A stretch of DNA of 64,000 nt from Kolteria novifilia (GTDB lineage: Bacteria; Planctomycetota; Planctomycetia; Kolteriales; Kolteriaceae): NCBI RefSeq assembly GCF_007748055.1, contig NZ_CP036279.1; one strand, given 5' to 3'. Below are positions 1,111 through 51,990 of this stretch, in pieces; position 1 is the first letter of the stretch; every line of letters starts with the position of its first letter. The notes under the pieces were generated by a model. It saw only the letters and a list, made by a program, of their open reading frames with translations. It was not told the DNA's origin and made no database searches. The position numbers were made by a program, and so were the translations under genes.

Positions 1111-2802
1111 TCACGGCTTGCCGGGTTGTCCTTGCTCCGATGAATCGGTCGACGAAGTCACCGACTCGAAGGTCGGCCCAATGCGAAGTCGATCGATCAA
1201 CAGCCGATCGTGCGGCTCGGTATGCTGCCCCATGCGAAAGCCGAGGAAGGTCGACTTCGGGACTCCCTTGGCATCTTCTCGGCGAATGACTTCGACATCG
1301 GCGGGTTGGCGATCTCCCGGACGAGGGTTCATCCAAAGCTCGAGTCGGTCGGGCTCACCGTCGCGCGATCGCCGCAGGGCCGCGACAAACCAATAGGTCG
1401 CCCCATCCTGGGCTCGCTCTTGAACCACTTCGTGTCCGTGGTGTAGTCGAGCGAAGATCCAGCCGAAGCGAATGCCGACGTTGGGGGCGCGACTGTGACT
1501 CGAATCCATCGTGGCGGCATCGTCGAGCCAGAACGAGAAGAAGTCGTCCCGGTCGAGCCCGTCGTAGCGAGCAAGAAAACTGATGTAGAGGTCGTCGTCG
1601 CCAACCGTCGGCAGTTTGCGAACGATGCGGTTCGCGATCGACGGATAGGCCGGATCCCGGCCGTGCAGCGCCACCGCGGTTTGTCCGGCCGTTTCTCCCG
1701 GCAGCGTCAGCCCTGGGGCGACGACTTCGGCGAAGGGAACGTCGGCGCGCCAAGCGTGGTCGCCAAACCCTTCGCCCCCGTGGCTGCCGTCGAAGTCTCC
1801 CACTTGGTAGTCGAAGTCATCGGCAATGAGCTTCGGTGGAGCCGCCACCCGCGCATCCGTCTCCGCGAGGGCATCGGTCGATTCGTCGAGTTTTCCCGGG
1901 CGGGTGACAAGCGTCCCTTTCCGGACGGCCGCGATTTGTTCCAAGGTCGGCAGATCGCCAAAAACGTTACTCGCGGCGGCAAACCGGGCATCAACCGCAA
2001 AGTCGCGCGGAAACCGACCCGCTTGCTGGGCGGTCAGTCGCGTCTGGCCAGGCTCCCGCGTGGACCGGACGTCGGCGACGCCATCAAAGACGTGAACATC
2101 GGTCTCGCCGGCGGCATCGACCACCAGGCCGACCTGCCTCAAGTTCCCGACGATGTTGGTGCTCGGGGTGACGACTTCTATCGGATCGGCGGATTCGGGG
2201 ATCCGGGCGTGAATGTTGCCCGCGTGCAGCGCGATCTTACGGGGCGAGGACAACTCGAGCCGACAGGGCCCTTGCAGCGTCATCGCCACGCCGTTGTCGA
2301 ACGCGAGCCGAGCCGTGCCACTTTCGAGCGCGACGGTCTCGCCCTGGCGGAAGCGATCGCCGTAGGAGGGGACGTTTCCGTCCGGCCATGTCGCGTCCTC
2401 GGTGTCAACCAGCGACGCGATGAGCCTTGACGGCTCGGGGCCCGCCGGTTGCCGGTTCGCTCCACGCCACGGCGACCATAGGACGATGGTGAGAAGCAGG
2501 ATGGCGGCGGCGACGAACGTAGTCATCGTCGCGAGGCGTCGCTTCGAATGCCGCGTTGCCGGTTCCGTGGCACTCGCGGGGGAGAGGGTATCGGCAAGTG
2601 CCGACATCTCGGGCGACTCCTCGACGTAGAGTTCGCTGGAGAGCATCGCCTCCAAGTTGACGTGGTAGACGTACTCGCGAATCAACTCGGGATCGCGTCT
2701 CAGGTGTGCGGCGAGTCGTTCCTCGTCCTCGCCACGAAGTGACCCCTCCACGGCGTGGCGAAGCAGGGTCTCCCAATCTCGTCTCGCGTCGGAGTCGCTC
2801 AT
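1111..2802 (-). CDS. FecR-like anti-sigma factor with one TM helix and a C-terminal LamG-like jellyroll domain
   Basis: The ORF is 1111..3141; the plausible start is M114 (MSDSDARRDWETLL), which overlaps the sigma stop as ATGA. TM segment FVAAAILLLTIVLW. FecR-domain sequence: GETVALESGTARLAFDNGVAMTLQGPCRLELSS. Confidence 0.8.
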   Translation of the reverse strand: MSDSDARRDWETLLRHAVEGSLRGEDEERLAAHLRRDPELIREYVYHVNLEAMLSSELYVEESPEMSALADTLSPASATEPATRHSKRRLATMTTFVAAAILLLTIVLWSPWRGANRQPAGPEPSRLIASLVDTEDATWPDGNVPSYGDRFRQGETVALESGTARLAFDNGVAMTLQGPCRLELSSPRKIALHAGNIHARIPESADPIEVVTPSTNIVGNLRQVGLVVDAAGETDVHVFDGVADVRSTREPGQTRLTAQQAGRFPRDFAVDARFAAASNVFGDLPTLEQIAAVRKGTLVTRPGKLDESTDALAETDARVAAPPKLIADDFDYQVGDFDGSHGGEGFGDHAWRADVPFAEVVAPGLTLPGETAGQTAVALHGRDPAYPSIANRIVRKLPTVGDDDLYISFLARYDGLDRDDFFSFWLDDAATMDSSHSRAPNVGIRFGWIFARLHHGHEVVQERAQDGATYWFVAALRRSRDGEPDRLELWMNPRPGDRQPADVEVIRREDAKGVPKSTFLGFRMGQHTEPHDRLLIDRLRIGPTFESVTSSTDSSEQGQPGKP

Positions 2803-3341
2803 GTGTTTTCTCCCGTCGCGAGTCGGTGTTCGATGCACTCGAGCAGGCTCTTGCGGATTCGGTAGAGCGACATCGAGATCGCGTCGGCCGATCGTCCCAT
2901 GAGCTCCGCGATGCCGCTGACGGAGATGCCTCGGCTGTAGCGATGGTTGAGCAGGTCGCGGTGGTGGCCGGAGAGCTTCTCGATGCAGTCGCGTAGGGCC
3001 TTCGTGCGTCGTTCGGCCTGTTCGGCTTGTGCGACCGCTTCGTCGGCGATCGCCCCGACCAGATCGTCCTCGAATGGGACTTTCGCTTTGCCTCGTTCCT
3101 TCTTGAGGAAGGCCAGCGCCTGCAGATGGGCGATGCGGCAAGCCCAGGCCTTGAACGGTCGCTCGGGATCGTATTCCTCCCGTTTGCGCCAGAGCACCAT
3201 GTTGGTCTCTTGGACGATGTCGTCGACATCGCTCGGCCGGCGCACGATCGCGTGGACGATGCCTCGCAGCGCCGGTTGGGCGCTGACCAACTGCGCGAGG
3301 TAGCGTTCGTCACCGCGCTCGGAATGGTTCGTTTCGTGCAT
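2799..3341 (-). CDS. ECF (sigma-70 family, group 4) RNA polymerase sigma factor
   Basis: 180 aa with sigma-70 region 2 (DIVQETNMVLWRKREEYDPERPFKAWACRIAH) and region 4 (ISVSGIAELMGRSADAISMSLYRIRKSL). The stop overlaps the anti-sigma start by 4 bp. Confidence 0.85.
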   Translation of the reverse strand: MHETNHSERGDERYLAQLVSAQPALRGIVHAIVRRPSDVDDIVQETNMVLWRKREEYDPERPFKAWACRIAHLQALAFLKKERGKAKVPFEDDLVGAIADEAVAQAEQAERRTKALRDCIEKLSGHHRDLLNHRYSRGISVSGIAELMGRSADAISMSLYRIRKSLLECIEHRLATGENT

Positions 3342-10030: not shown

Positions 10031-10557
10031 CGTTTCCCCTTCCCATGAGATGCGTTTTCTTCCCTGGCAGTTGGCACCATGCCGGCTCGACCTTCGATGA
10101 ATCCCGCGTCTCGAATCGTCCGTTCGTTCAACCACCGCGGCGGTGTCGCCTTTGTCGATCTTCCCTGGGTACCATGCTCACGTTTGCGTGGGCATGCGGT
10201 GAAGACCTACCTTGCAAATGGCGAAGTACCCTCTGGCAATGGTTGGCGACGAGCTTGCCAATCCGAGACTGGTCCGAATGGTCTGCCACGTTCCTGCCTG
10301 TCGGATCTACCTAGAGTAGCAACAGCCATTCCAAAAAGCTGCCGCCACCCAAACCACCATTCTCCCGAAACGGGCGAGCGACTGCAACCTATTTGTAGCA
10401 AGCAGGATAGGGCGATCTTGCCGGAGTCGAACGTGCGTCAATCGGCACCGAGATGGGCGGATGACTCTGGTTCGAGCTCGATGGGAGGCTTCTCGACTGG
10501 AAATTCTCCCGTTGGTCCTCATGCGGCTGGAAAATTTCCTGCCGGTTGGAAGCCTGG

Positions 10558-12399
10558 TCAAAAGATCCCGTGGAGGGGGCCGCCGGCAGCGGCGAGGGCA
10601 TCCACACGTTTGGTGACCTCCGGATCCTCGATCAACGGCGGGGCATGGTGCGGCTTGAGCCGGGCATCGATCACCAGCGAGCCGTGGCAGCCCCAGTGTT
10701 TCTGCACGCAGAACGATTCGATCCCATGGATGTCCGCCGCTGGATTGGCCCGCGTGAAGGTCACCCACAGGAAGTTTCGCACCGTCCTGGCGGTGAACTC
10801 ACTGTCGTCGACCAGCACGACGAGCGGGAACGCGTTGATCGGATGCCGAGCATCGAGCGATTCGGTGAACCGGATCAGCGATTCCTCGTACTCCCCGGCA
10901 TCGTCGGCGTAGGGCGGCGACTTGATCGCGAGAATGCCGGGCAAACAAAGCCGAGGTTCCTCGAAGTCCTCCGGCAGCGAACAATCGCTCGGGATCTCCT
11001 TGGGAAGGACTCGCCGAGCCGGACCGACCGCCGCCATCACCAGCTTCGACCCCTCGTTGAAGCCCGAGCCCGAATAGTCGAGCGTGTCGATCGTCGTCGA
11101 GGTCTGAAAATGGAGATCGAACGCCCAGTCGATCCGTTCGAGAAGATGCCGGAAGAAGGCGGGGATGTCGCTGATGTCGAGTTCCGGGTCGTCCTCGTTC
11201 GCGACGATCAGCAGGAATTTCGCAAGCGAGAGCTGACCCTGGCCCAGGATCGCGTTGGCGCACGTCAGCAACTCCTGCGGACGCTTCCGCTCGGCATAGG
11301 GGACGTAACGCTCGCTGCCAATCGCTAGCAGCAGCGGATGAACGCCCGCCTCGTCGACGGCATGCACGGCATGAACGCCATGAACGACCGTCGGGATGAC
11401 CGGGCCGGTCAGCTCGTGGATGAACTTGCCAAAGGTCGTGTCTTCCTGCGGTGGCCGACCAACGACGGTGAAAGGCCAGATCGCGTCGTCGCGGTGGTAG
11501 ACGCCGTCGACGTTGAGCACCGGGAAGTCGTGGGCCAAGCTGTAGTAGCCGAGGTGGTCGCCGAAGGGGCCTTCGGGAAGCAATTTGTCGGGGTCGATCC
11601 AACCGGTGATGCAGAAGTCGGCATCGGCCGCGATGGCCGGCTCGGCGCTGCGCCGCACGATGCGAAGTCGCCGTCCACCGAGTGCTCCCGCGAAGGAGAG
11701 TTCGGGAAGTCCCTCGGGAAGGGGCATCACCGCCGCGACCGACATCGCTGGTGGGCCGCCGACGAAGATGTTCACCCGCAGCGGTTGGCCTTTCTTGATC
11801 GCCGCGGCGTGGTGGACGCCGATGCCCCGGTGAATCTGGTAGTGCAACCCGATCTGCTTGTCGGGCGCGTAGTCGCTACCGGAAATCTGGACGCGGTACA
11901 TCCCCAGGTTCGACTTGCCGGTGCCGGGGCGACGCGGATCCTCGGTGTAGACCTGCGGCAGGGTCACGAAGGGTCCGCCATCGCGGGGCCACGACGTGAT
12001 CGCGGGAAGGTCCGAGAGGTGGATCTTGTTGGCGAGGACCGGTCCCTTGCTCATCCGCTTCGGCAGCGTGTTCCAGCCGGTCAGCGGCAGCCCGAGGTAG
12101 CGCCAGGGACGTCGGCCGAAGTTGGTCGGATCGACCTTGAGTTCGACCAGCCGCCGGACGCGCTCGAGGGTATCGCGAAAGATAAACTCCGCCCGCTCAA
12201 GGGTACCGAAGAGGTTGCTGACAAGGGGAAAGCGACATCCTTTCGGCCTAGTGAAGAGCAGAGCTGGGCCTTGCGCTTCGTAGACGCGGCGCTGGATCTC
12301 GGCGACCTCGAGAAACGGATCGACCTCGGCATCGACGCGGACCAAGTGCCCGTGCTGCTCGAGATCCCGAACGCATGCTGCGGTGTTGCGATAGCCCAT
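10558..12399 (-). CDS. ubiD: UbiD-family decarboxylase (3-octaprenyl-4-hydroxybenzoate carboxy-lyase / menaquinone-type)
   Basis: 613 aa. The N-terminus (DLEQHGHLVRVDAEVDPFLEVAEIQRRV) and overall length are typical of the UbiD family. Confidence 0.85.
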   Translation of the reverse strand: MGYRNTAACVRDLEQHGHLVRVDAEVDPFLEVAEIQRRVYEAQGPALLFTRPKGCRFPLVSNLFGTLERAEFIFRDTLERVRRLVELKVDPTNFGRRPWRYLGLPLTGWNTLPKRMSKGPVLANKIHLSDLPAITSWPRDGGPFVTLPQVYTEDPRRPGTGKSNLGMYRVQISGSDYAPDKQIGLHYQIHRGIGVHHAAAIKKGQPLRVNIFVGGPPAMSVAAVMPLPEGLPELSFAGALGGRRLRIVRRSAEPAIAADADFCITGWIDPDKLLPEGPFGDHLGYYSLAHDFPVLNVDGVYHRDDAIWPFTVVGRPPQEDTTFGKFIHELTGPVIPTVVHGVHAVHAVDEAGVHPLLLAIGSERYVPYAERKRPQELLTCANAILGQGQLSLAKFLLIVANEDDPELDISDIPAFFRHLLERIDWAFDLHFQTSTTIDTLDYSGSGFNEGSKLVMAAVGPARRVLPKEIPSDCSLPEDFEEPRLCLPGILAIKSPPYADDAGEYEESLIRFTESLDARHPINAFPLVVLVDDSEFTARTVRNFLWVTFTRANPAADIHGIESFCVQKHWGCHGSLVIDARLKPHHAPPLIEDPEVTKRVDALAAAGGPLHGIF

Positions 12400-12461: not shown

Positions 12462-12715
12462 ACGGGTCGAACTCTTTCAGAGTTCGGAATTCATCGCCAC
12501 GCCTACCCAAGGTGCGCTGCGCGACCTTGGGCTGTGTACTTTAACGGCGTTGCCGTAGGGAACCAAAGAAGGGTACAAACGCGTCGCGCCAGTGCCCACT
12601 GGGTCACCCTATCCCCACGGTCACCGTTTCACGGCGTTGCCGTAGGGAACCGAAGAAAGCATGCCGAAGGCATGCGACAACACAGCCCAGCGTCGCGACA
12701 GCGCACGCTGGGTCA
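12462..12715. repeat. Composite palindromic repeat elements (inverted copies of units from the 14020..15130 array)
   Basis: Contains gggtcgaactctttcagagttcgg (a GAAA-loop hairpin), cccaaggtgcgctgcgcgaccttggg, aacggcgttgccgtagggaacc, gcatgccgaaggcatgc and cccagcgtcgcgacagcgcacgctggg. Confidence 0.7.
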
Positions 12716-12719
12716 TGAG

Positions 12720-13802
12720 CTACATCCCTGGCGTGGGCGTCGTGTTTTTGAGATCCATCACCACGTTGTCGAACGTACACGCTCCGAAGGTCAACGATCC
12801 CCCGTCGATGCGAATCGCCGCTTGGCCGGACGGTTTGTCGGTCGCGATCGCCACCCGCTCGAGCCGTAGCGTGAAGGGCATTCCCTTGGTCCGAGGCCCC
12901 GCGATCAGGGCGGCGGCCGACGTCGTGTTGACGATCTGGCAATCGATAAGCGAATGGGCCTTGCCGATGAGCAGGGCATCGACGTTGACGTTGTCGGTGA
13001 AGACGCAGTTCCGATAAATCGTCTCCGCTTGATTGACGTCGGCGATGCCGTGCTCGCTGCCGAAGAAACGACCGCCGTTGATGGTACACTCGCAGGTATC
13101 GTGGGCGGAGAAGCCCTCGTCGAAGCAGTCGTAGCCCTCAATGTTCTCGAAATGGAGTTCGCGGGCATCGCCGTGAATGTTGAAGCCGTCGTTGAGGAAG
13201 TGGCGGGTGTTGAGGTTCCGCACCACGAGCCGGCGACAGGTTCCGCTCGTCGCGATCCCGTTGACCCGCGTCGCCCACTCGAGCTTGTCGGGCGTCCCGC
13301 GAACGTAGAGCCAGCCGCTCTTCTCGTCGATGGTCTGGAAGCGGAACTGGCCGGGCTGGAGCTGGGAGGGTTCGGGAAAGGCTTTCGTCTTGCTGTTGCT
13401 CGCGGTGCGTCCCATTCGCTCGGCGTGTCCATCGATTATGAGCAGGTGCCGGTCGTAGCGCGTTCGAGGCAGCTTTCGCCGGTAGAGGCCGTCGCCGAGT
13501 TCTTCCCAGCCATCGTTGGGCAGGGTGATTGCCCCGTCGAGCGTGACGCCGTTGCCCTCGATCGTGATGCCGAACTTGCCGCGAAACGAGCCCGCTTGGC
13601 GATAGACGGCACCTGCCGGGTGGAGGTGAATAACGTCGCCGTCGGCCGCCGAAGCGATCGCCTTTTGCAGCGACAAGAAGGGATGCTCCTTATCGCCGAC
13701 GCCGCTGTTGTTTCCCGTTTCATTGTTGACGTGCCACTCGGCGGCGAAGAGCGGGGCACCGGTCGTGAGGAAGACCGCGAGAAGGAGAAGGCGTCGAGTC
13801 AT
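12720..13802 (-). CDS. Secreted right-handed parallel beta-helix (pectate-lyase-like) repeat protein
   Basis: Start at M17 of ORF 12720..13850 (MTRRLLLLAVFLTTGAPLFA, a signal peptide). The sequence is Gly/Asn/Asp-rich and repetitive, as beta-helix proteins are. The antisense + ORF 12954..13889 is rejected. Confidence 0.7.
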   Translation of the reverse strand: MTRRLLLLAVFLTTGAPLFAAEWHVNNETGNNSGVGDKEHPFLSLQKAIASAADGDVIHLHPAGAVYRQAGSFRGKFGITIEGNGVTLDGAITLPNDGWEELGDGLYRRKLPRTRYDRHLLIIDGHAERMGRTASNSKTKAFPEPSQLQPGQFRFQTIDEKSGWLYVRGTPDKLEWATRVNGIATSGTCRRLVVRNLNTRHFLNDGFNIHGDARELHFENIEGYDCFDEGFSAHDTCECTINGGRFFGSEHGIADVNQAETIYRNCVFTDNVNVDALLIGKAHSLIDCQIVNTTSAAALIAGPRTKGMPFTLRLERVAIATDKPSGQAAIRIDGGSLTFGACTFDNVVMDLKNTTPTPGM

Positions 13803-14019
13803 CGTGGGTGCATCGATCCGGCAGGGGGGAGTCAGGGTTGGAATCGTCACCTCGACACCCTAGCCGCGCACCCGAAGGCGTGTCAATAACGACTCCGCGT
13901 GATCGCAACGATCTGTTCGGCACATGGCAACGATTCGACGTGTCCGTTTGGCCCGCGATTTGCGGTTTGTGCGCTATGCGTTGGCGGGGAGAAGTCGGGA
14001 TCGGGGCGGTTCCTGAGTG

Positions 14020-15130
14020 TTCCTACGGCAACGCCGTTAGACAACACAGCCCAAGGTCGCGCAGCGCACCTTGGGTCACTGTGTGGCCCGGCATACCTTC
14101 GGCATGCTTCTTCGGTTCCTACGGCAACGCCGTTAGACAACATAGCCCAAGGTCGCGCAGCGCACCTTGGGTCACCTGTGTTGTCGCATACCTTCGGCAT
14201 GCTTCTTCGGTTCACGCTCTCCGCGGTCGGAATTCCGGCATACCTTTGGCATGCTTGCTCGGTTCACGCTCTCCGCGGTCGGAGTTCCGGCATACCTACG
14301 GCATGCTTGATCGGTTCCTACGGCAACGCCGTTAGACAACACAGCCCAAGGTCGCGCAGCGCACCTTGGGTCACCGGGGCGACGAGTCCCGAACTCTGAA
14401 AGAGTTCGACCCGTTGGGGGTGATGCGTTGTCGGCCGCATGTCAAACCCGCTTCGGGGTTTGGGAGAATTGGATGGTCGGTGACCCAGCGTGCGCTGGCG
14501 CGACGCTGGGCTGTGTTGTCGCATACCTACGGCATGCTTGATCGGTTCACGCTCTCCGCGGTCGAGTTCCGGCATACCTACGGCATGCTTGATCGGTTCA
14601 CGCCCTCCGCGGTCGGAATTCCGGCATACCTTTGGCATGCTTCTTCGGTTCACGCTCTCTGCGGTCGAGTTCCGGCATACCTTCGGCATGCTTGATTGGT
14701 TCCTACGGCAACGCCGTTAGACAACACAGCCCAAGGTCGCGCAGCGCACCTTGGGTCACCGGGGCGACGAGTTCCGAACTCTGAAAGAGTTCGACCCGTT
14801 GGGGGTGATGCGTTATCGGCCGCTTGTCAAACCCGCTTCGGGGTTTGGGAGAATTGGATGGTCGGTGACCCAGCGTGCGCTGGCGCGACGCTGGGCTGTG
14901 TTGTCGCATACCTTCGGCATGCTTCTTCGGTTCACGCTCTCCGCGGTCGAGTTCCGGCATACCTACGGCATGCTTGATCGGTTCACGCCCTCCGCGGTCG
15001 GAATTCCGGCATACCTTCGGCATGCTTCTTCGGTTCACGCTCTCCGCGGTCGGAGTTCCGGCATACCTTTGGCATGCTTGATCGGTTCACGCTCTCCGCG
15101 GTCGGAATTCCGGCATACCTTTGGCATGCC
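14020..15130. repeat. Complex tandem repeat array: ~60-bp units plus palindromic A-units, organised as a ~385-bp super-repeat (about 2.9 copies)
   Basis: The unit ccggcatacctNcggcatgcttNNtcggttcacgctctccgcggtcgNNttc repeats more than 12 times. Interspersed are gttcctacggcaacgccgttagacaacacagcccaaggtcgcgcagcgcaccttgggtcac and the hairpins ccgaactctgaaagagttcg and aaacccgcttcggggttt. A direct repeat of 14312..14696 recurs at 14697..15080. Confidence 0.85.
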
Positions 15131-15139
15131 CGGAATGGG

Positions 15140-16552
15140 CTAAGCGAAGATCTCGTTCACGATGCGGCCGTGGACGTCGGTGAGGCGGAAGTCGCGGCCG
15201 GCGTGGCGGTAGGTGAGCCGTTCGTGATCGAGCCCGAGGAGCCAGAGCAGGGTGGCGTGAAGGTCGTGCATGTGGACCTTGTCCTCAATGGCGTAGTAGC
15301 CGTACTCGTCGGTCTTGCCGTGGACGTGGCCTTTCTTCACGCCGGCGCCGGCGAGCCACATCGTGAAACCCTGCGGGCAGTGATCGCGACCATTGGAGCC
15401 TTGGGCCAAGGGGGTTCGGCCGAACTCACCACCCCAAAGGACCAGGGTGTCGTCGAGCAGGCCGCGCCGTTTGAGATCCTCGAGCAATCCGCCGATCGGC
15501 TTGTCGACGCTCAGGGCGTTCTTGCGGTGACCCGACTCGAGGTTGCCGTGCTGGTCCCAAACCATCTTCGTCGAGACCTGGATGTAGCGGACACCCGACT
15601 CCGCGAAACGGCGGGCGAGGAGGCACTGGCGACCGTATTCGGCGGTCTCCTTTTGGTCGATGCCGTAGAGAGCGAGCGTCTCCTTCGACTCGCCACTCAT
15701 GTCGAGGACGTCGGGAGCGGTCGTCTGCATGCGGAAGGCGAGCTCGTAGGACTCGATGACCGCATCGAGCCGGCTATCCTCCTTGGCCCGCTCGGCGTGG
15801 CTGCGGTTGAGCGACTGGATCAAATCGAGCTGCTTGCGCTGCTGAGCGCGGGAAAGAGCTTTGTTGACGACGTTGCGGATCCCCGCTTGAGCGACCGGCG
15901 TGCCGGCGCTCCCAATCGCGGTGCCCTGGTACGCGGCCGGGAGAAAGGCGGTGCCGTAGTTCTGCACGCCGCCGTGGCTGGTGGGAGGGCTGATGGTGAT
16001 GAAACCGGGAAGGTCCTGGTTCTCGGTGCCGAGCCCGTAGGTGATCCACGAGCCGACCGAGGGACGCGTGAAGATATCCGAGCCGGTGTGGAGGTTCAGG
16101 ACCGCTTGGCCGTGGGACTGCCCCTCGGTGTGCATGCTGTTGATCAGGCACAAGTCATCGATGTGCTTGACGGTGTGCGGAAAGAGATCCGAGGCCCAAA
16201 TGCCGCTTTCACCGTGTCGCTTGAAGGTCCAGGGTGACTTCATGACCTTGCTGGTGGCGCCGACGCTGGCGAGTTCGACCTGCTTGAAGGAGGCGTTCTT
16301 GCCATGTTCTTTTTCGAGAAGCGGTTTGTAGTCGAAGCTGTCGACCTGACTCGGCCCGCCGTGCATGAAGAGGAAGATGATTCGCTTGGCTCGCGGAGGA
16401 TGGTGCGGGGCCTTCTCCGCCAAGGGCGATGTGGCCGCGGCGCCGAAGCTCCGTTGGGAGAGGAGATCGGCCAGCGCCAAGTAACCGAAACCGCAGCCCG
16501 CCCGTTTGAGGAGATTGCGGCGGGACAGGGGAGTTTCCTGGAGCGGATTCAT
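15140..16552 (-). CDS. DUF1501 family protein (Tat signal)
   Basis: 470 aa. Tat motif [11 protein letters not shown]. Blocks [15 protein letters not shown] and NGRDHCP. Confidence 0.9.
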
Positions 16553-16624
16553 GCGTCGTCTCTCCCTCGGTGCTTCTTTTCAAACTCGTTGGGTACACTG
16601 ATCACGCGATGAGCCACCTGTCCC

Positions 16625-19162
16625 TTACTCCACGAAGCGAAACTCGCTCGAGGAGAAGAGGGCCTGGCAGAAGGTGGTCCACCCTTCACGGCGGACCGCG
16701 TCGTCGGTCTTCTTGGGATGCTCCGGATCGGCCCACTCCGCAAGATAAGCTAGGCAGCGGCCTTCCTCGTCCTCGGTCGGCAGTCGGTTGAGGACCCGTT
16801 CATATGCTTCGCGGACTCGCGACCGCTCGTCGATCGCCCCATTCGCGAGCAGCGACTCGGCGAGCGACTCCGAGAGCGACGCGACCCACGGACTGTTGAC
16901 CATGAAGAGAGCCTGGGTCACGACGGTGGTCGATCCCCGCTTGCCGGTGGAGACGTTCGGGTTGGCGACATCGAAGGTCTCGAGGGCCTCCGGCAAGCCG
17001 TTGCGGATGATCGGGAGGTAGACGCTCCGGCGGCGGTGCTTCGTAAAACTGGGGAGCTTCGCGTTGTTGTCAAGGGCGACTTCCTTGAAGCCGTCGATGG
17101 TCGAGCCGTTCATCGTCAGGTCGAGCTCGCCGCCTAGTGCCAACAAGGTGTCACGCACCGCTTCGGCATCGAGCCGGCGGCGGTTGGCCCGGCCGAAGAA
17201 CCGATTGTCGGGATCGAGTTCGATGCAGTCTCCCGGGGCTTCGGTGCTCAGGGCGTAGGTACGGCTGAGCATGATCTCTCGGATGAGGCTCTTGACCGAC
17301 CAGCCCTCTTCCACGAAACGGGTCGCGAGGTAGTCGAGTAGTTCCGGGTGGCTGGGCCGTTCGCCGAGTTCGCCGAAATTGTCGACGGTGCGAACCAGTC
17401 CCGAGCCGAAGAGGTGATGCCAGATCCGATTGGCCATCACGCGGGCGGTCAGCGGATTCTCCTCGCTGGCGAGCCATTCGGCGAGTTCCCGGCGACCGCT
17501 CTGATGACTGGGGAGCACCGGCGTCGCGTTGCACGCGACTTCGACGAAGCCTCGCGGAACGACCTCGCCTCGGCGTTTGTGATTGCCGCGAATGCAGAGG
17601 GCGATGTCCTCGATGTTGTCCTCGTCGCGAACCGCCATCGCGAGCGGCGGCATGGGCGTCTTGGTCTTGTTGACTTCAGCGAGAGAGGATTCGAGCTTCT
17701 TCAGTTGAGCGGTCGCCTCGGCGATCTTCTCATCGAGTGTGGGGGACTTTTTCTTCTTCGCGGCGGTCGTCGTTGGGGCGTTTTCGGTCGACTCTTGGTC
17801 CTTTCCGGACGCTTTTTGGTCCGTTTTCGTCTCGGAAGCGGCCTTTTTCGCCTGATCTTGGAGCTTTTTGAGCGATTTCTTGACCTTGCTGACCTTCTTG
17901 CTCAGATCCTTGATCTTCTTGACGTCGGCCTTGGCGAGTTCGTACTGTTGGTCGCCCTCGGGGCCGAGGGGCCGGAGCATCCAACCCGAGACGTATTGAT
18001 TGTTCTGCTTGATGCCGTCGATCGTCCGGGTGCTGCGAAGGATCCCCGCCAGTGCGTAGTAGTCGTTCATCGCGATCGGGTCGAACTTGTGATCGTGGCA
18101 GCGGGCACAAGAGACCGTCAGCCCGAGGATCGACTTGCTGATGGTCTCGATCTGTTCGTCGACCGCGTCCATCCGAAGCTTTTCTTTGTCGCGTTCGGCG
18201 GCGACCTTCGGTCCGAGGACCAGGTAGCCGGTCGCGATCACCTTTTCGTCGCGCTCCTCGGGCGTCTGGGCGTCGAGCAAGTCGCCGGCAATCTGCTCGA
18301 GGATGAACTGATCGTAGGGCTTGTCGTCGTTGAAGGCGTCGACCACATAGTCGCGGTAACGCCAGGCGTTGAAATAAGTTAGGTTCTGGTCGAGGCCCGT
18401 CGAATCGGCGTAGCGGGCGATGTCCAACCAGTGGCGGCCCCAGCGTTCTCCGAAGCGGGGCGAGGCCATCAAGCGGTCAATCGCCCGAGCGAACGCGTCG
18501 GGCTTGTCGTCCTCGAGAAACGCTCGGGTCTCCGTCGGCGTCGGGGGAAGGCCGGTCAGTGCGTAGCTGGCCCGACGCAGCAGGCCGCGACGATCGGTCT
18601 CTTGGGAAGGGGCGACGCCCTCGGCTTCGAGCTTCGCCAGGATATGGCGGTCGATGGTGCCGCGCGGCCAGGCCTTGTTCTTCGTGCTGGGCGGGGCGGT
18701 TCGCTGGGGATGTTGAAAGGCCCAGAACTTGCGGCCTTGCTCGACATCGATGCCCGAACGGGGACGTTTGTGGGCGAATTTTCCCTTGCGCGGGTCGAGG
18801 GCACCCTTGGCGATCCACTTCTCGAAGTCGGCGATGACTTGTTCGGGAAGTTTCTCGGTCGGGGGCATTTCGAACGATTCGTGACGAAGCGCGTCGAGCA
18901 GTAGGCTCTCTTTTGGCTTTCCGGGAACCACCGCGGGCCCTGAGTCGCCGCCAGTGAGCATCGGTTCGGCCGCGTCGAGGAGCAACCCGCCCATCACGGT
19001 CTTGGAGTCGGCCGCGTGGCACGAGTAGCAGTGCTCGGCGAGAACCGGTCGGATCTTCTTCTCGAAGAACTCGACATCGGCGGGATTCATGTCGGCGGCG
19101 AGCGAGGGCAGGGCTCCGAAGAGCAAAAACAAGCTCGCGACGATGGGCAGGCCAGGCCTCAT
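16625..19162 (-). CDS. PSCyt1/PSCyt2/PSD1 (DUF1549/DUF1553) family protein with a Lys-rich coiled-coil insert
   Basis: 845 aa. Signal peptide MRPGLPIVASLFLLFGALPSLAA. Heme motif EHCYSCHA. It sits 72 bp upstream of the DUF1501 gene, the usual pairing. Confidence 0.9.
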   Translation of the reverse strand: MRPGLPIVASLFLLFGALPSLAADMNPADVEFFEKKIRPVLAEHCYSCHAADSKTVMGGLLLDAAEPMLTGGDSGPAVVPGKPKESLLLDALRHESFEMPPTEKLPEQVIADFEKWIAKGALDPRKGKFAHKRPRSGIDVEQGRKFWAFQHPQRTAPPSTKNKAWPRGTIDRHILAKLEAEGVAPSQETDRRGLLRRASYALTGLPPTPTETRAFLEDDKPDAFARAIDRLMASPRFGERWGRHWLDIARYADSTGLDQNLTYFNAWRYRDYVVDAFNDDKPYDQFILEQIAGDLLDAQTPEERDEKVIATGYLVLGPKVAAERDKEKLRMDAVDEQIETISKSILGLTVSCARCHDHKFDPIAMNDYYALAGILRSTRTIDGIKQNNQYVSGWMLRPLGPEGDQQYELAKADVKKIKDLSKKVSKVKKSLKKLQDQAKKAASETKTDQKASGKDQESTENAPTTTAAKKKKSPTLDEKIAEATAQLKKLESSLAEVNKTKTPMPPLAMAVRDEDNIEDIALCIRGNHKRRGEVVPRGFVEVACNATPVLPSHQSGRRELAEWLASEENPLTARVMANRIWHHLFGSGLVRTVDNFGELGERPSHPELLDYLATRFVEEGWSVKSLIREIMLSRTYALSTEAPGDCIELDPDNRFFGRANRRRLDAEAVRDTLLALGGELDLTMNGSTIDGFKEVALDNNAKLPSFTKHRRRSVYLPIIRNGLPEALETFDVANPNVSTGKRGSTTVVTQALFMVNSPWVASLSESLAESLLANGAIDERSRVREAYERVLNRLPTEDEEGRCLAYLAEWADPEHPKKTDDAVRREGWTTFCQALFSSSEFRFVE

Positions 19163-21507: not shown

Positions 21508-21574
21508 GCACGTTGTCCTCACCTGTCCAAGGGGGCACAAAGTCCGATGAGTGGTGGGTCAAGACCGACCCTAC

Positions 21575-22010
21575 TTGGCTCCCTGTGGGAGAGTGAGCCT
21601 CTTGTTCCCCTCTCCCTGTGGGAGAGGGGTTAGGGGTGAGGGGGGGCTTTCCCCACAAGTTGCCTTGTTTCACCAAGCAATGAATCCCCTCACCCGTCTC
21701 GCTTCGCTCGCCGACCTCTCCCCACGGGAGAGGTCAATGGTACCCCTCTCCCCGTGGGAGAGTGAGCCTCTTGTTCCCCTCTCCCTGTGGGAGAGTGAGC
21801 CTCTTGTTCCCCTCTCCCTGTGGGAGAGTGAGCCTCTTGTTCCCCCTCTCCCTGTGGGAGAGTGAGCCTCTTGTTCCCCTCTCCCTGTGGGAGAGGGGTT
21901 AGGGGTGAGGGGGTTCGCATTTGCGAATGCCCCCATCACTTTCCGAGGCGGAATCTCCCTCACCGGTCTCGCTTTGCTCGCCGACCTCTCCCCAAGAAGA
22001 GGTAAGGAGA
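21575..22010. repeat. Tandem array of 33-bp hairpin units (ccctctccc-tgt-gggagaggg + tgagcctcttgtt) with G-rich/C-rich flanks
   Basis: At least 5 consecutive units span 21742..21900, with a shorter block at 21581..21650. Units are followed by gggttaggggtgaggggg; a tcgcttcgctcgccgacctctcccca block is duplicated. It lies between convergent genes. Confidence 0.8.
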
Positions 22011-22497: not shown

Positions 22498-22650
22498 GAT
22501 GTACCTCCGAGATGGACTCCGACGCTTGGCCGGAAGAAGCGACCAGATCACTGAACCCGACGTGTGTGCTCAAGAGATGTCGAGTATAAGCGATGCTGGC
22601 GACGAAATCCGGCTTTGTATCGCGGGATGTTCCTCGTCGCGAATGAGTAG

Positions 22651-22668
22651 GGTGGGTCTTGACCCACC
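22651..22668. terminator. Terminator-like hairpin ggtggg-tcttga-cccacc followed by a U-rich tract
   Basis: Lies just downstream of the isomerase gene. The same motif, agggtgggtcttgNNcccaccatct, recurs at 51658..51678. Confidence 0.4.
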
Positions 22669-22750
22669 ATCTCTATTTCCTCAACGACAACAATCGTGAT
22701 CCAGCGTGAGTGCTCGCGACGTTGGACATTGCAATCCCTTGCCTTCGATA

Positions 22751-25346: not shown

Positions 25347-25467
25347 GATTCCCTTTCGAAGAGGTCCGATCGTTGTCGCCACGATGGTTGCACAAACGAT
25401 CGTGCGAGGCCACAAGAAAGGGCTCAAGGCCAGTGGCAACGTCGAGGGAAGGGGTTGCGCAGGTGGC

Positions 25468-26889
25468 TTACGCGATGATGTCGTGAGCGACGTGGCCGTG
25501 CACATCGGTGAGGCGGAAGTCGCGACCGGAGTAGCGATAGGTCAGCCGTTCGTGGTCGATGCCCAGCAGGTGGAGGAGCGTCGCATGCAAGTCGTGGACG
25601 TGGACGCGTTTGTCGATCGCGTTCATGCCGAGTTCGTCGGTCGCGCCGTGGGTATAGCCTCCCTTAACGCCGCCGCCGGCGAGGAACATCGAAAAACCGG
25701 TGTGATGGTGATCGCGTCCCGCCTTGGTCATGTCCTTCTTCTTGTCGAGTTGAGCGTACGGCGTTCGACCGAACTCGCCGCCCCAGACGACAAGCGTGTC
25801 CTCGAGTAGGCCGCGCGTCTTTAGATCGGTCAGCAGCGCCGCGGTCGCTTGGTCGCTGTCGGCGCAGAGTCGCTCGTGGGACTTGTTGTTGTTGCTGTGC
25901 GTGTCCCAGGGCTGCTTGCCTTTCTTGGTGACGTAGTAGACCTGAATGAAGCGGACCCCACGCTCGGCCAGGCGACGAGCCATCAGGCAGCTTTGCCCGA
26001 AGGGGCTCTTGCCGTACATCTCGCGAATCGGCTCGGGCTCGCGGTGGACGTCGAAGGCCTCGGTCGCCTCGCTTTGCATCGCGAAGGCGAGCTCCATCGC
26101 CCGGATCTGCGCGTCGAGGGCGGCGTCCTGGGGGCGCTGGGCGGCGTGCAGTCGGTTGAGCGAGTTGATTAGCTCGACCTGATCGCCCAACTGGGCACGC
26201 GTGAGCCGGGGATGACGGATGTTGGCGACGAGTCGGTCGACCGCCAACTCGTTGGTGTCGAGCGACATGCCCTGGTGCTCGCCGGGCAGGAAGGCGCTCG
26301 ACCAAAGTTGCGGGCCCACCACCGGCCGGCCGGGACAGAGGACGACGAACGACGGCAGGTTTTTGTTCTCGTTGCCGAGACCGTAGGAGAGCCACGACCC
26401 GAGGCTCGGGCGAATGGGCTGCTGGTTGCCCGAATTCATCATCAAGAGGCCCGGCTCGTGGTTGGGCACGTCGGTATGCATCGAGCGGAGGACGCAGAGA
26501 TCATCGGCGCACTTGGCGAGGTTTGGGAAAAGCTCGCTCATGACGACGCCGCCTTGCCCGTGCGCCTTGAACTTGAAGGGGGAGGGCATGAAGCCGGCAC
26601 CACGCGGCTTGCGGCCCTTGTCGTCCTTGGAAGGCTTTTGGCCGGCGTACTTCCGCAGCGCCGGCTTGGGGTCGAACGTGTCGACGTGCGAGGGAGCCCC
26701 GTTCATGAAGAGGAAGATGACCCGCTTGGCTTTCGGCGGAAAGTGGGGGATGCTCGCGAGGTTCGCGGGAGTCTGGTTCCCCAGCAGACCCGCGGCCTGG
26801 AGCGTTCCCGCCAGACCGAGCATACCGAAACCGGCGCCGGCTTGGTGGAGGAACTCACGGCGAGTGCGGGGCGATTGCGGGATATCCAT
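25468..26889 (-). CDS. DUF1501 family protein (Tat signal)
   Basis: Start at M56 of ORF 25468..27054 (MDIPQSPRTRREFLHQAG). Blocks FLFMNGAPSHVDTFD and AGRDHH. Confidence 0.9.
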   Translation of the reverse strand: MDIPQSPRTRREFLHQAGAGFGMLGLAGTLQAAGLLGNQTPANLASIPHFPPKAKRVIFLFMNGAPSHVDTFDPKPALRKYAGQKPSKDDKGRKPRGAGFMPSPFKFKAHGQGGVVMSELFPNLAKCADDLCVLRSMHTDVPNHEPGLLMMNSGNQQPIRPSLGSWLSYGLGNENKNLPSFVVLCPGRPVVGPQLWSSAFLPGEHQGMSLDTNELAVDRLVANIRHPRLTRAQLGDQVELINSLNRLHAAQRPQDAALDAQIRAMELAFAMQSEATEAFDVHREPEPIREMYGKSPFGQSCLMARRLAERGVRFIQVYYVTKKGKQPWDTHSNNNKSHERLCADSDQATAALLTDLKTRGLLEDTLVVWGGEFGRTPYAQLDKKKDMTKAGRDHHHTGFSMFLAGGGVKGGYTHGATDELGMNAIDKRVHVHDLHATLLHLLGIDHERLTYRYSGRDFRLTDVHGHVAHDIIA

Positions 26890-26900
26890 TGTGACGACCT

Positions 26901-29051
26901 TTAGTCGAGGATGATCATCTCGTTGGTGGCGAGCAGGGCCTGGGCCAAGTTGCGCCACCGCTGGGGCCGAGCGGAAACGTCCGGCCCGAGGAAGGCCTCG
27001 GCAAGCGTTCGTTCGGCCGACGACGGTGAGCGGCCGAGGAGGAGCTGGTAGCAACGCTCGATCCGCGCCGAGTCACTGGAACCGACTTCGGCATCGAGCC
27101 GGGCGAGCAGCGCATCGCCGAGTTCCACCATGAAGGGACTGTTGATCGCGAAGAGCTTCTGCAGCGGCGTGGTGGTGTGGGGGCGCAGCGCGCTGTGGGC
27201 GTTGGGATCGGGAAAGTCGAACTTGGCCAGCAGCGGGTGGAGTTGAAAGCGGCTGATGCGGCTATAAACCGTTCGCCGTGGCGTCGCGAGGTCGTCCGGT
27301 TCGATCGACGTTCCGCCGAGGTCTTCGTTGAGGAGCCCGGTGACGCTCAAGAGGGAATCACGCCACTGTTCGACGTCGAGCCGGCGCCGGTTCATGTGGC
27401 CCAGGAGCTTGTTGCCGGGGTCGGCTTTCAGGGTCTCGGGGGCGCCCTGGCTGCTCTGGCGATAGGTCGCCGAGAGGGCGATTTCGCGGTGGAGCCACTT
27501 GAGCGACCAGCCGTGGTCCATGAATCGAACCGCCAGGTCGTCGAGTAGATCGGGGTGTGTTGGCCGCGAACCGAGCATGCCGAAGTTGCTCGGCGTGCCG
27601 ACAAGGGGTTGGCCGAAGTGCCGGGCCCAGACGCGATTGACGATGACCCGCGCGGTCAGCGGGTTGTCGCGTTCGACGATCGCGTCGGCGAGTTGGGCTC
27701 GGCCGCTGCCGTTGGTGAGTGGCCGGGGCGAGGGAGAGAGCACTTGCAAGAAGGAGCGTTCGACGACCGGCCCCTTGTTCTTGATGTCGCCGCGAATGAA
27801 GACGTTTAGGTCGACCGGCGTTCGGTCGCGAACGACGTGAATCGACTCCTCCGGGTTCTCCGCGTTGCCGTCTTTCTTCTTCTTGTGGTTGTCGTCGAGC
27901 GGGCGGTTATACATCGCGGTGCTGGCGAAGACGCCGGCTAACGCGTAGTAGTCCTCGGTCGCGATCGGGTCGTACTTGTGGTCGTGACAGCGAGCACACG
28001 CGACCGTCAGCCCCAGCAAGCCACGCGAGACAACATCGACGCGATCCTCCCATTCCTCGGCCCTGACCGCGGGATTGCCGCGACCGTAGTACTTCGGACC
28101 GAGTCCGAGGAAACCGAGCGCCGCGACATGCTCCTGGCTCTCCGGCTCGAAGGTATCGGACGCCAACTGAAGGCGGAGGAAGCGATCGTAGGGCATGTCC
28201 TGGTTGAGGGCGGCGATGAGCCAGTCGCGATAGAGGTACGCGTTGGGGTAGAAGAGTGACTTGTTGTTGCCGACGATGTGAGCTTGATCCTCGGCGTAGC
28301 GGGCGACGTCCATCCAGACGCGAGCCCAACGCTCCCCATAGTGCGGCGACGCGAGTAGTCGGTCGACGAGCCGTTCGTAGGCGTCGGAAGCCTCGTCGTC
28401 GACGAAGGCGATGACCTCTTCCGGGGTCGGGGGCAGGCCGGTCAAGTCGAAGCTGAGTCGGCGAATGAGCGTGCGCCGGTCGGCCTCGGCCGCGGGCGTG
28501 AGGCCCTCGTTCTCCAGTCGCGCGAGGACGAAGCCGTCGAGCGGTCGCCTGATCCAGTCGTTTCGTTTGGTGGCGGACGGCACGTGACGCGTGGGAGGTT
28601 GGAACGACCAGAACTCGCGCGCTTTGGCGAAGTCGATCGTCTTGGGTTTGGGCGGAGGGGCCTTGCCGTCGCGGGGATCGTCGGCGCCCATCTCGATCCA
28701 ACGTTCAAAGTCGGCGATCACCTTCTCGGGAAGTTTCTGATCGGGCGGCATCTCGAAGGTTTCGTGACGAATCGCCGCGAGGATCAGGCTCGCCTCTTTG
28801 TCCTTGGGAACGACGGCAGGCCCGGAATCGCCCCCGGTGCGCATGCCCGAGCGAGTGTCGATCGAGAGGCCGCCGTTGGTTTCACCCTCCTTGGCGGAGT
28901 GGCACTCGGCGCAGTATTGGAGCAGGACCGGGCGGATCTTCCGTTCGAAGAACTCGATTCGTCCTTCAGGAGCGGCCGCGGCGACTAATCGCGCGAGAGA
29001 AAGCACGCACAAGGCAGCGAGTAGGACACGATGCGAGGGCGGCAACGCCAT
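26901..29051 (-). CDS. PSCyt1/PSCyt2/PSD1 (DUF1549/DUF1553) family protein
   Basis: Start at M90 of ORF 26901..29318 (MALPPSHRVLLAALCVLSLARLVAAAAP). Heme motif QYCAECHSAKEG. It sits 11 bp upstream of the DUF1501 gene. Confidence 0.9.
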   Translation of the reverse strand: MALPPSHRVLLAALCVLSLARLVAAAAPEGRIEFFERKIRPVLLQYCAECHSAKEGETNGGLSIDTRSGMRTGGDSGPAVVPKDKEASLILAAIRHETFEMPPDQKLPEKVIADFERWIEMGADDPRDGKAPPPKPKTIDFAKAREFWSFQPPTRHVPSATKRNDWIRRPLDGFVLARLENEGLTPAAEADRRTLIRRLSFDLTGLPPTPEEVIAFVDDEASDAYERLVDRLLASPHYGERWARVWMDVARYAEDQAHIVGNNKSLFYPNAYLYRDWLIAALNQDMPYDRFLRLQLASDTFEPESQEHVAALGFLGLGPKYYGRGNPAVRAEEWEDRVDVVSRGLLGLTVACARCHDHKYDPIATEDYYALAGVFASTAMYNRPLDDNHKKKKDGNAENPEESIHVVRDRTPVDLNVFIRGDIKNKGPVVERSFLQVLSPSPRPLTNGSGRAQLADAIVERDNPLTARVIVNRVWARHFGQPLVGTPSNFGMLGSRPTHPDLLDDLAVRFMDHGWSLKWLHREIALSATYRQSSQGAPETLKADPGNKLLGHMNRRRLDVEQWRDSLLSVTGLLNEDLGGTSIEPDDLATPRRTVYSRISRFQLHPLLAKFDFPDPNAHSALRPHTTTPLQKLFAINSPFMVELGDALLARLDAEVGSSDSARIERCYQLLLGRSPSSAERTLAEAFLGPDVSARPQRWRNLAQALLATNEMIILD

Positions 29052-29399
29052 GGGGTATCTCGTTAGGTGGGGCGCACGCAGCGCGAAGTTGGCGGGTCCA
29101 GAGGCTCCCCAAGTATAACGCACGGCCAGAGGGACGCAAGGGAGGAACCCGTCGAAGGGGACGGTGAGGAGGAGTCTCTCTCCAGTATCCCGCAGGGGGC
29201 GTTTCGACCGCGAGATAATCCGGAAACGACCAGCCAACGTGGTGAGGGCAGGAACCAGACGGTACACTCGGCTTGAACGAAAGAGAGAGGTCTTCCTGCG
29301 GCGGGTTGGGGGTATCACCGCGCGGACTGACTTGGGCCGATACGTGCGGTGACGCGATCATCGCGCCGGCTTCCGTGGTCGAGAAGGGGATGTTTAGCG

Positions 29400-36278: not shown

Positions 36279-36460
36279 CCGGAGACGGAAAACGCACGTC
36301 AATCCGAGCCCGGCGCCGCCGTACAAGGAGTGGGAGCACCTGGTCCGCCCCCGCGCGGAAACCGGCACTTGGCAGGCTCGCCTCGAGGGAACTGCGGCAG
36401 CGATCGTCGGATCAAGTTAGGGACCGGGCACGGATGGACTATTCTTGGGGCATCTGACTT

Positions 36461-36530
36461 GAGAGCCAACGGACTCGAGAGCCAACGGACTCGAGAGCCA
36501 ACGGACTCGAGAGCCAACGGACTCGAGAGC
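36461..36530. repeat. 16-bp tandem repeat gagagccaacggactc x4.4; each junction makes a CTCGAG (XhoI-type) site
   Basis: Perfect copies at 36461, 36477, 36493 and 36509, located 48 bp upstream of the second kinase start. Confidence 0.85.
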
Positions 36531-39248: not shown

Positions 39249-39431
39249 GCTCACAACTCCTTCTGGTGCTCGACGCCTCGGGACTCGATCCGGGCGAACA
39301 GGCTCTTGCGTTTTGAATGACTCCCTGTGTCATTCCTCTGCAAGTACATGGTGAGAATGGCCGAGAGAAGGACAGCGAAAACCTCGCTGGCATGGACGTG
39401 GAGACAGGGGGAAGATTGAGAGAACACCCTC

Positions 39432-51769: not shown

Positions 51770-51990
51770 GTGACCCAGCGTGCGCTAGTGTAGTGTTTGC
51801 GAGTTGAACGAATTTACGTCGCCCGCGACATTGCTTGTTGGGAATGGCAGATCTCGGAATTCACCCTGTGTTTACCGTGACTCTGCGCAACCGAATACAT
51901 ACGCTTCTGGATGACACAGTACACTAGCGCGACACTGGGCTATGATCTGGCATACCTTCGGCATGCTGGTCTTCGCGGTCGGAATGGGTG
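51770..51990. repeat. Third copy of the composite palindromic repeat family, split by a ~125-bp insert
   Basis: gtgacccagcgtgcgctagtg ...125 bp... cactagcgcgacactgggct, followed by ggcataccttcggcatgct...cgcggtcggaat. Confidence 0.65.

Follow-up and report, generated by a model that had tools for sequence, protein, structure and literature searches.

Structured repeats of Kolteria novifilia as probable gene-less ends of an IS200-like mobile-element family

REP-associated tyrosine transposases (RAYTs), the partners of repetitive extragenic palindromes (REPs), cut at a CT dinucleotide that is selected by the AG of a GTAG tag, and one of them recognises a perfect 8-bp stem with a 3-nt loop (PMC8266576). 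Subclass 1.2 of the TnpA-Y1 enzymes has been described as low-copy and generally without terminal secondary structures, and the enzymes of Planctomycetes and Acidobacteria were mainly assigned to class 3 (Quentin et al. 2018, PMC6006769). The motif Acido-Lenti-1 (Rfam RF01687), which has 89 members in Acidobacteria and Lentisphaerae and sometimes lies close to group II introns, was reported as a probable small RNA without an assigned function (Weinberg et al. 2010, PMC2864571). Here we analysed a stretch of 64,000 nucleotides from the planctomycete Kolteria novifilia (contig NZ_CP036279.1; the whole stretch is called the window), in which three hairpin-rich loci (12462-12715, 14020-15130 and 51770-51990) have modules in common, all far above chance. 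We conclude that in the three loci non-autonomous ends from a small IS200-like mobile-element family are very probably combined into a mosaic, similar to REPs and bacterial interspersed mosaic elements (BIMEs) or to miniature inverted-repeat transposable elements (MITEs). The element family spans Planctomycetes and neighbouring phyla.

End modules and their transposase partner

The complete form of the element is about 680-690 bp long, with a gene for a 151-aa IS200-like Y1/HUH transposase between two inverted ends of ~115 nt. Each end, followed outward from the gene, starts with the inner hairpin (h2); next come a conserved palindrome (P), whose 8-bp stem CC......GG encloses a variable core, an invariant unpaired CT (AG on the opposite strand), a 10-12-nt linker and an outer triloop hairpin (h1). 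In the window, Tandem Repeats Finder, a repeat search and an approximate-match scan all agreed with the first-pass annotation that the three loci share modular units. The scan located P as a variant CCCAAGGT...ACCTTGGG at 12506, 14050, 14146, 14345 and 14730, and as a second variant CCCAGCGT...ACGCTGGG at 12686, 14484 and 14869. The variants differ by AG:CT versus GC:GC, and therefore both palindrome arms change together, as had been noticed before. The third locus (51774-51939) has the second variant with one arm mismatch and with an insertion splitting the two arms.

Two sub-families of ends were distinguished. Sub-family A ends have the P stem CCCAAGGT, the outer hairpin ACGGC-AAC-GCCGT and the inner hairpin CGAACTCT-GAAA-AGAGTTCG; sub-family B ends have the P stem CCCAGCGT, the outer hairpin GCAT(G/A)CC-TTC-GGCATGC and the inner hairpin AAACCC-GCTTCG-GGGTTT (h2'). 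Both inner hairpins had been read as RNA loops, of GNRA and UUCG type. The GAAA hairpin is present at 14390-14408 and 14775-14793, and at 12468-12486 as the reverse complement (loop TTTC on the plus strand), and the AAACCC hairpin is present in only two copies (14444-14461 and 14829-14846), both within a super-repeat. The loop labels are incidental: the two hairpins are simply the h2 and h2' positions, which elsewhere hold unrelated short hairpins, mostly triloops.

Relatives were searched with a pattern of 15 specified bases in one genome per species. The matches were mostly due to chance, and at least 17 true loci were found among the matches listed, from Gemmataceae, Pirellulales, Planctomycetaceae, other metagenome-assembled genomes (MAGs) of Planctomycetota, one Verrucomicrobiota-labelled MAG and one Acidobacteriota-labelled MAG. 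The unit in these loci is symmetric and ~230 nt long, with the order h1, P, h2 followed by the mirror h2', P', h1'. Gene-less units with the same ends as full units were found in L031, L006, L032, L047 and the window. In L010, L057, L048 and L013 the two halves lay ~600 nt apart and enclosed one open reading frame (ORF).

The enclosed ORF matched Pfam Y1_Tnp (PF01797) at E 3e-20 and 2e-22 (72.9 and 80.3 bits, cutoff 23). It scored 51.7 and 52.2 bits on NCBIfam transpos_IS200 (cutoff 55), and 20.9 and 19.4 bits on REP_Tyr_transpos (NF047646, cutoff 80). A profile of the four transposases matched the solved IS200/IS605 transposases ISDra2 and IS608, and no REP-associated enzyme was obtained among solved structures at E<0.01. 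Invariant residues in transposase A1 were Y116, Q120, H123, H124, F129, E132, R134, R135, D145-Y148, W150 and D151. The transposase has both the Y---Q--HH motif and the conserved C-terminal domain by which subclass 1.2 is recognised. Of 8,000 proteins scored against it, at least 7,982 were matched at E<=1e-30.

The link between ends and transposase was tested independently with 80 metagenomic loci that were picked by transposase similarity alone. Most of them had inverted repeats within ~130 nt on either side of the gene, and these ends were ~100-125 nt long with 80-97% identity. In 100 of the 157 flanks that could be evaluated, a perfect palindrome of at least 7 bp started with CC and was followed by CT; it mostly lay 40-95 nt from the gene, and the linker and the triloop hairpin came next. 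A covariance model (R1) was then built from 55 transposase flanks, with the window sequence excluded, and the window was searched with filters off. R1 gave eight matches (E 3.7e-12 to 3.3e-6), all inside the three loci, and no comparable match elsewhere in the 64 kb; at the B-type end of the third locus it reached only 14 bits (E 0.047) because of the ~128-nt insertion between the palindrome arms. Over 97 loci plus the window, R1 matched 272 times in 498 kb, and at least one end module was present in 77 of the 80 transposase loci (exceptions L132, L164 and L189; table read by eye). A sequence-only hidden Markov model gave 134 matches in 313 kb of transposase loci versus 0 in 771 kb of control loci. 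The window copies belong to this family, and its ends are linked to the transposase.

The boundaries of the element were compared between close relatives. The transposases of L153 and L162 are 91% identical in DNA, and their 691-nt homology consists of the gene plus 117 and 119 nt, ends just beyond the outer hairpins and is followed by unrelated flanks. L146 and L151 have a 679-nt unit in common. Such 691- and 679-nt units in unrelated contexts are the signature of a small, discrete mobile unit. The first-pass annotation had proposed target-site duplications as a test of MITE mobility; none was found at the two definable element boundaries (L153/L162 and L146/L151), and they are not expected for this transposase type. 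Y1 enzymes make no target-site duplications. No target specificity emerged from these four boundaries. In the general sense the gene-less units are MITE-like: they are short and non-coding, and their terminal inverted repeats are those of the autonomous form (full units L010 and L057), from which they would derive by loss of the gene.

Hairpin pairing and the Acido-Lenti-1 motif

Base pairs were counted on the 150 best R1 matches, in an alignment that was fitted to the model structure, so that the counts lean towards it: 99.5% of cells were paired, 11 of 13 pairs had double changes (262 double-change cells) and one G-U was found in 1755 cells. In slid-partner controls pairing was only 20-53%. 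Where both DNA strands have to fold into the hairpin, G-U is expected to be nearly absent, unlike in an RNA read from one strand; Watson-Crick-only pairing thus fits DNA hairpins better than RNA. The local stems are what is kept, because the palindromes A and B of the window, each self-complementary, are mismatched against each other and would mismatch in a long hairpin of the type formed by REP doublets (REPINs); this mismatch rules out such a hairpin as the selected structure. In predicted folds the whole six-hairpin unit is able to fold end to end as well, and the DNA fold z-scores of the 385-nt repeat were -6.2 and -7.2. Conservation in 149-150 of the 150 copies was seen for the unpaired CT that follows P' (on the opposite strand, the AG that precedes P), for the CC/GG at the foot of the stem and for the T in the middle of the outer triloop. 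By analogy with REP-associated transposases, AG-P may be the recognition and guide unit here.

When Rfam was run over the window at gathering thresholds, only tRNAs were matched. Under the threshold, the second palindrome variant with the GCATGC hairpin matched RF01687 at 34.9, 30.3 and 28.1 bits (gathering score 37; best E 1.8e-6); no RF01687 match was reported for the A-type window copies, and all window copies stay under the gathering threshold. The RF01687 layout, an 8-bp stem and a 5-bp triloop stem joined by a CUA/CUG linker of ~12 nt, is present in the window. The threshold was passed by relatives, namely L077 (51.4 and 49.3 bits), L197 (46.2 and 40.5 bits) and L148 (44.7 bits). Since the above-threshold matches of L197, at 2384-2428 (-) and 3002-3046 (+), flank its transposase (2501-2947) in inverted orientation, Acido-Lenti-1 is the outer two-thirds of an element end. 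The threshold-passing copies in L077 and L006 have the six-hairpin layout and GTAG at the foot of P. The Rfam Lentisphaera seed sequences, when read with their flanks, were mosaics of the same hairpins, for example the near-identical AUGCC-GAA-GGCAU. An orphan Rfam motif is now linked to a subclass-1.2 Y1 mobile element, which is the most useful by-product of this analysis.

On the Acidobacteriota-labelled contig CAVTIL010000002.1 (L077, 3627-3843 and 5933-6133), a palindrome of the Planctomycete type (core GCGCTGCGCG) lies 2 kb from one of the canonical short Acido-Lenti-1 type. Two sub-families thus share a single genome there, like A and B in the window. Other Rfam matches, to the S-adenosylhomocysteine (SAH) riboswitch (16 bits) and the ybhL leader (21.5 bits), were at chance level.

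The hairpins might instead be structured RNA genes or parts of them, such as the Acido-Lenti-1 small RNA, and be kept since the transcript needs them. The strong covariation, the stable predicted folds and the sub-threshold RF01687 matches agree with this, as does the position of all three loci just past gene ends on the transcribed strand. However, the modules are found in either orientation, inside one unit they form mirror pairs, they flank the transposase gene as inverted repeats, and their Watson-Crick-only covariation is expected if both DNA strands fold; in addition, the copies are numerous, clustered and tandemly amplified, and the Lentisphaera seeds are themselves mosaics. An RNA function is therefore very unlikely. 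Of the two natures first suggested for these repeats, RNA structure or MITE, the second was essentially right, since elsewhere these ends flank a Y1 transposase gene, which the copies in the window lack.

Origin and layout of the window copies

For a mobile-element origin we propose that the transposase would bind the P hairpin in single-stranded DNA, as in IS200/IS605 and REP/RAYT, would use the AG beside the stem foot as guide, and would cut and rejoin at the CT. Loss of the gene would give ~230-nt six-hairpin units like the two in the window, and single ends and tandem arrays of ends are found as well. Selection or hairpin-templated repair would keep each local stem Watson-Crick paired while the sequence drifts, and this persistence would follow from the binding and cutting through the P hairpin. 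Cleavage at the CT and movement of these particular copies are presumed.

The contents of the loci agree with a mosaic. Locus 1 has an A right end and a B left end. It is an inverted copy of parts of locus 2: 12462-12559 is 91% complementary to 14702-14799 over 98 nt, and 12657-12715 matches 14866-14924 over 59 nt (97%). Locus 2 has two solitary A left ends, two six-hairpin units (each an A left half joined to a B right half) and three arrays of a 52-nt unit, which consists of the B outer hairpin and a 35-nt tail (Table 1). Its first six-hairpin unit is a chimera with the same architecture as L031, L006, L032, L047 and L077. Locus 3 has a solitary B right end, its palindrome split by ~128 nt, and matches 12658-12706 over 49 nt (80%); the repeat search ties it to both other loci. 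The 35-nt tail belongs to the B end, because locus 3 carries the same tail motif CGCGGTCGGAAT.

The super-repeat previously described as 385 bp long was recovered by Tandem Repeats Finder with a 385-nt period over 14186-15088 (2.3 copies, 95% matches, score 1680), and 14282-14581 and 14667-14966 were 97% identical. The smaller tandem unit, previously estimated at ~60 bp, is actually 52 nt long. Its hairpin GCATACC-TTC-GGCATGC has an A.C mismatch on the plus strand and G.T on the minus strand; the A.C mismatch is found in 14 copies, which suggests recent neutral amplification, and slippage, unequal exchange or repeated strand transfer are possible origins of the arrays. Tandem arrays of ends adjoin the transposases of many other loci, with periods of 33-279 nt, so the super-repeat of the window is typical of the family.

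On the 385-nt and 52-nt arrays alone, a purely local satellite or segmental duplication unrelated to mobile DNA could be considered. It is refuted by the same modules 39 kb away in the window and in Gemmataceae, Pirellulales, Planctomycetaceae and the Verrucomicrobiota- and Acidobacteriota-labelled assemblies, and is extremely unlikely; as had been suspected, the repeats are more than simple satellites, being a dispersed, modular and hairpin-rich family that is also present in other genomes. CRISPR was ruled out, as the repeats are without unique spacers. Integron attC sites were considered as the repeats bracket one gene, and were set aside once the same hairpins were seen flanking a Y1 transposase as inverted repeats.

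Besides the lean of the pair counts given above, several points weigh against the mobile-element origin. No transposase gene was found by tblastn within the 64-kb window. A matching transposase in this genome (strain Pan216) is presumed: no protein named Pan216 was among the best 120 of the at least 7,982 homologues, and the ends of this genome were mapped over the 64-kb window. The six-hairpin units of the window combine two sub-families; such chimeras are better explained by a mosaic that recombined or arose by adjacent insertions than by a clean deletion inside one element. The 52-nt arrays are explained more simply by slippage or unequal exchange than by transposition, and their hairpin carries the A.C mismatch uncorrected. 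With only 65% identity, even the closest homologue of the bracketed gene offers no empty site or insertion polymorphism for comparison.

The repeats bracket a minus-strand beta-helix gene, as had been stated, starting 7 nt past its stop codon and 10 nt past that of the DUF1501 gene upstream. The minus strand encodes all the neighbouring genes: UbiD-like (10558-12399), beta-helix (12720-13802), DUF1501 (15140-16552) and a PSCyt/PSD protein (16625-19162). Host-serving, REP-like elements between such same-strand genes could act as terminators or insulators, as stabilisers of mRNA 3' ends or as nucleoid-protein sites. The dense arrays of stable hairpins would suit this, as would loci that start <=10 nt from a stop codon or sit between convergent genes, and a secondary role of this kind is known for the REP/BIME elements of E. 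coli. On the other side, a promoter and terminator scan found no T-tract terminators beyond weak consensus matches, the array hairpin carries a mismatch, and around the beta-helix homologues of Bremerella and Blastopirellula the intergenic regions are short and free of such repeats. We consider a host function as the primary explanation improbable; a side-role as terminator or insulator is possible and compatible with the mobile-element origin. The nearest homologues of the beta-helix protein are 60-65% identical and lie in different contexts, and because the intergenic regions of the homologues are element-free, the window arrays are lineage-specific. With the mobile-element origin the conspicuous 1.1-kb structured array is explained, and caution is needed against annotating small RNAs or ORFs there.

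Table 1. Element features and the bracketed gene, in window coordinates
Feature	Coordinates	Strand	Evidence or remark
Inner hairpin, h2 type, sub-family A: CGAACTCT-TTC-AGAGTTCG, reverse complement of the 'GNRA' hairpin	12468..12486	+	Inside 98-nt inverted match to 14702-14799
Sub-family A end module, 'right-end' orientation: CCCAAGGT-GCGCTGCGCG-ACCTTGGG, invariant CT, linker, triloop hairpin ACGGC-GTT-GCCGT	12506..12558	+	R1 50.7 bits, E 1.7e-11
Degenerate palindrome copy (12581-12608) and second ACGGC hairpin (12627-12646)	12581..12646	.	89% complementary to 14479-14506
Sub-family B end module, 'left-end' orientation: hairpin GCATGCC-GAA-GGCATGC, linker GACAACACAG, palindrome CCCAGCGT...ACGCTGGG	12659..12712	-	R1 47.5 bits, E 1.1e-10; RF01687 34.9 bits, E 1.8e-6
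Bracketed gene (context, outside the element): right-handed beta-helix protein, signal-peptide-like N-terminus	12720..13802	-	
Sub-family A end module, copy 1 (h1 + P, 'left-end' orientation)	14023..14075	-	R1 53.3 bits, E 3.7e-12
Sub-family A end module, copy 2	14119..14171	-	R1 52.5 bits
52-nt tandem units x2.5, each hairpin GCATACC-TTC-GGCATGC + 35-nt tail with CCGCGGTCGGAATTCCG	14186..14317	+	Tandem Repeats Finder
Six-hairpin gene-less unit 1: A-type h1-P 14318-14370, h2 14390-14408, h2' 14444-14461, B-type P'-h1' 14484-14537	14314..14540	.	Match scan, R1, DNA fold
51/52-nt tandem units x3.5	14521..14702	+	Tandem Repeats Finder
Six-hairpin gene-less unit 2, second super-repeat copy: 14703-14755 (-), 14775-14793, 14829-14846, 14869-14922 (+)	14699..14925	.	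97% repeat match, R1
52-nt tandem units x4.3; end 10 nt from DUF1501 stop codon	14906..15129	+	Tandem Repeats Finder
Solitary B-type end: extended palindrome arms 51774-51792 / 51921-51939, then CT, linker, hairpin GCATACC-TTC-GGCATGC (51950-51966), tail with CGCGGTCGGAAT	51774..51990	+	Repeat matches 84% (direct), 80% (inverted); fold

Length changes are concentrated in the core of palindrome P, which spans 3 nt in copies of the short type, 10-21 nt in the majority, 26-36 nt at L200 1054-1132 and L013 7062-7137, and ~128 nt at window 51774-51939. The outer 8-bp stem of P is intact in L013 and L200 and has one mismatch in locus 3 of the window.

Locus 3 lies at the 3' edge of an island (49183-51626) with an Eco57I-like N6-methylase (573 aa) and a XhoI-family endonuclease (241 aa), whose GC content is low (0.51-0.54 versus ~0.62); the two genes probably form a restriction-modification system gained by horizontal transfer. 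About 30 nt from locus 3, at 52021-52097, a second dispersed palindromic family was found, with a 28-nt repeat GCGTGATCCTCTCCGCATGCCCACGCAG x2.2 ending in GCATGCCCACGC-AG-GCGTGGGCATG; an inverted relative (43 nt, 84%) lies 42 kb away at 10163-10205.

Other repeats were also recorded in the window. The flanking DUF1501 and PSCyt/PSD genes form one of two paralogous two-gene blocks, 15136-19162 and 25464-29318 (DUF1501 and PSCyt/PSD1 proteins), with 71-79% DNA identity in several segments. A 33-nt tandem unit CCCCTCTCCCTGTGGGAGAGTGAGCCTCTTGTT, which contains the palindrome CTCTCCC-TGT-GGGAGAG, is repeated x4.6 at 21743-21895 and recurs at 21579-21644. Inverted arms of 24 nt at 21552-21575 and 22646-22669 (96% complementary) lie around ~1.1 kb with a 162-aa ORF that has a signal-peptide-like start. 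At 36456-36530 a 16-nt tandem repeat GACTCGAGAGCCAACG x4.7 (98% matches) stands between two ORFs of ~760 aa, and at 39430-40184 an 8-nt unit TCGTGGGA is repeated ~95 times (97% matches, GC skew 0.39), overlapping long ORFs on both strands.

Comparison with known systems

Compared with Acido-Lenti-1, the window copies have the same 8-bp palindrome, CU plus linker and 5-bp triloop hairpin. They differ in that the Planctomycete palindrome core is longer and bulged (GCGCTGCGCG), and in that Acido-Lenti-1 is filed by Rfam as a small RNA whereas here it makes up half of a transposon end, found in either orientation.

The diagnostic Y---Q--HH motif, DHVH, WQ and the conserved C-terminal extension place the transposase with TnpA-Y1 subclass 1.2 (PMC6006769); the enzymes of class 3 were ruled out by their different motifs (NHVH, W[TA], YV..EQ). 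Subclass 1.2 has been described as not IS-like and as lacking terminal structures; in the clade sampled here, nearly every transposase gene lies between structured inverted ends, and gene-less copies have arisen from it. No later paper on TnpA-Y1 subclass 1.2 was found in the literature. We tentatively suggest that the three-hairpin inverted ends may be a so far unrecognised DNA substrate of this subclass. If so, they would form a second, independent system similar to REPtrons and REPINs, with an IS200-clade enzyme and strand-symmetric ends, and an Rfam RNA family would have to be reclassified as a transposon end. A huge Y1 clade would also gain a candidate DNA substrate, made of the 8-bp stem, the AG/CT tag, the bulged core and the outer triloop hairpin.

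TIRtrons, in which Y1 genes are flanked by long terminal inverted repeats that are also dispersed as single, paired or clustered copies, have been reported in Acidobacteria among others (Di Nocera et al. 2013, PMC3733652) and are similar in this respect. Most of their enzymes, the terminal inverted repeat-associated tyrosine transposases (TIRYTs), fall in RAYT subclass 2.1 with a GGGGWSAS motif, which is absent here; they were set apart by their published description (PMC3733652).

With IS200/IS605 elements the family has in common subterminal imperfect hairpins and short gene-less copies, such as palindrome-associated transposable elements (PATEs) and MITEs; its Y1/HUH transposase is of IS200 type by the Pfam match and scores just under the transpos_IS200 cutoff, and no target-site duplication was seen at the boundaries compared. 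The ends of IS200/IS605 are not inverted repeats and have both hairpins on one strand, whereas the ends here are inverted repeats of ~115 nt, so that both strands look alike; moreover, the element here is without a tnpB gene. Since IS200-type enzymes normally act on one strand, the symmetry raises the question of how such an enzyme copes with ends that are inverted.

With REP, BIME and REPIN systems and their RAYTs the family shares short extragenic palindromes whose stem foot carries a tag ending in AG, and copies arranged as inverted pairs or in mosaic clusters; its 8-bp stem with a short loop resembles the REP of S. maltophilia (PMC8266576). As in a REPtron, a single Y1 gene is flanked by several inverted copies and the ends far outnumber the genes; the 272 R1 matches represent many extragenic palindromes arranged as inverted pairs and clusters around single transposase genes. 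The partner enzyme, however, is not a RAYT (~20 bits on NF047646 versus a cutoff of 80) and is nearest to the solved ISDra2 and IS608. A tblastn with an E. coli RAYT sequence as query gave no match, which is a weak test. The REP tag is GT[AG]G versus ACAG or ATAG in the window, GTAG is found in L077 and L006, and only AG is invariant. Each end here is a three-hairpin module of ~115 nt and not one REP. The surprise is moderate, as the element is of a familiar REP/BIME/MITE kind. The element works like a REP/BIME/REPIN system. Its enzyme class sets it apart from REP/RAYT, of whose GTAG tag only the AG is invariant here, and its inverted ends set it apart from IS200/IS605.

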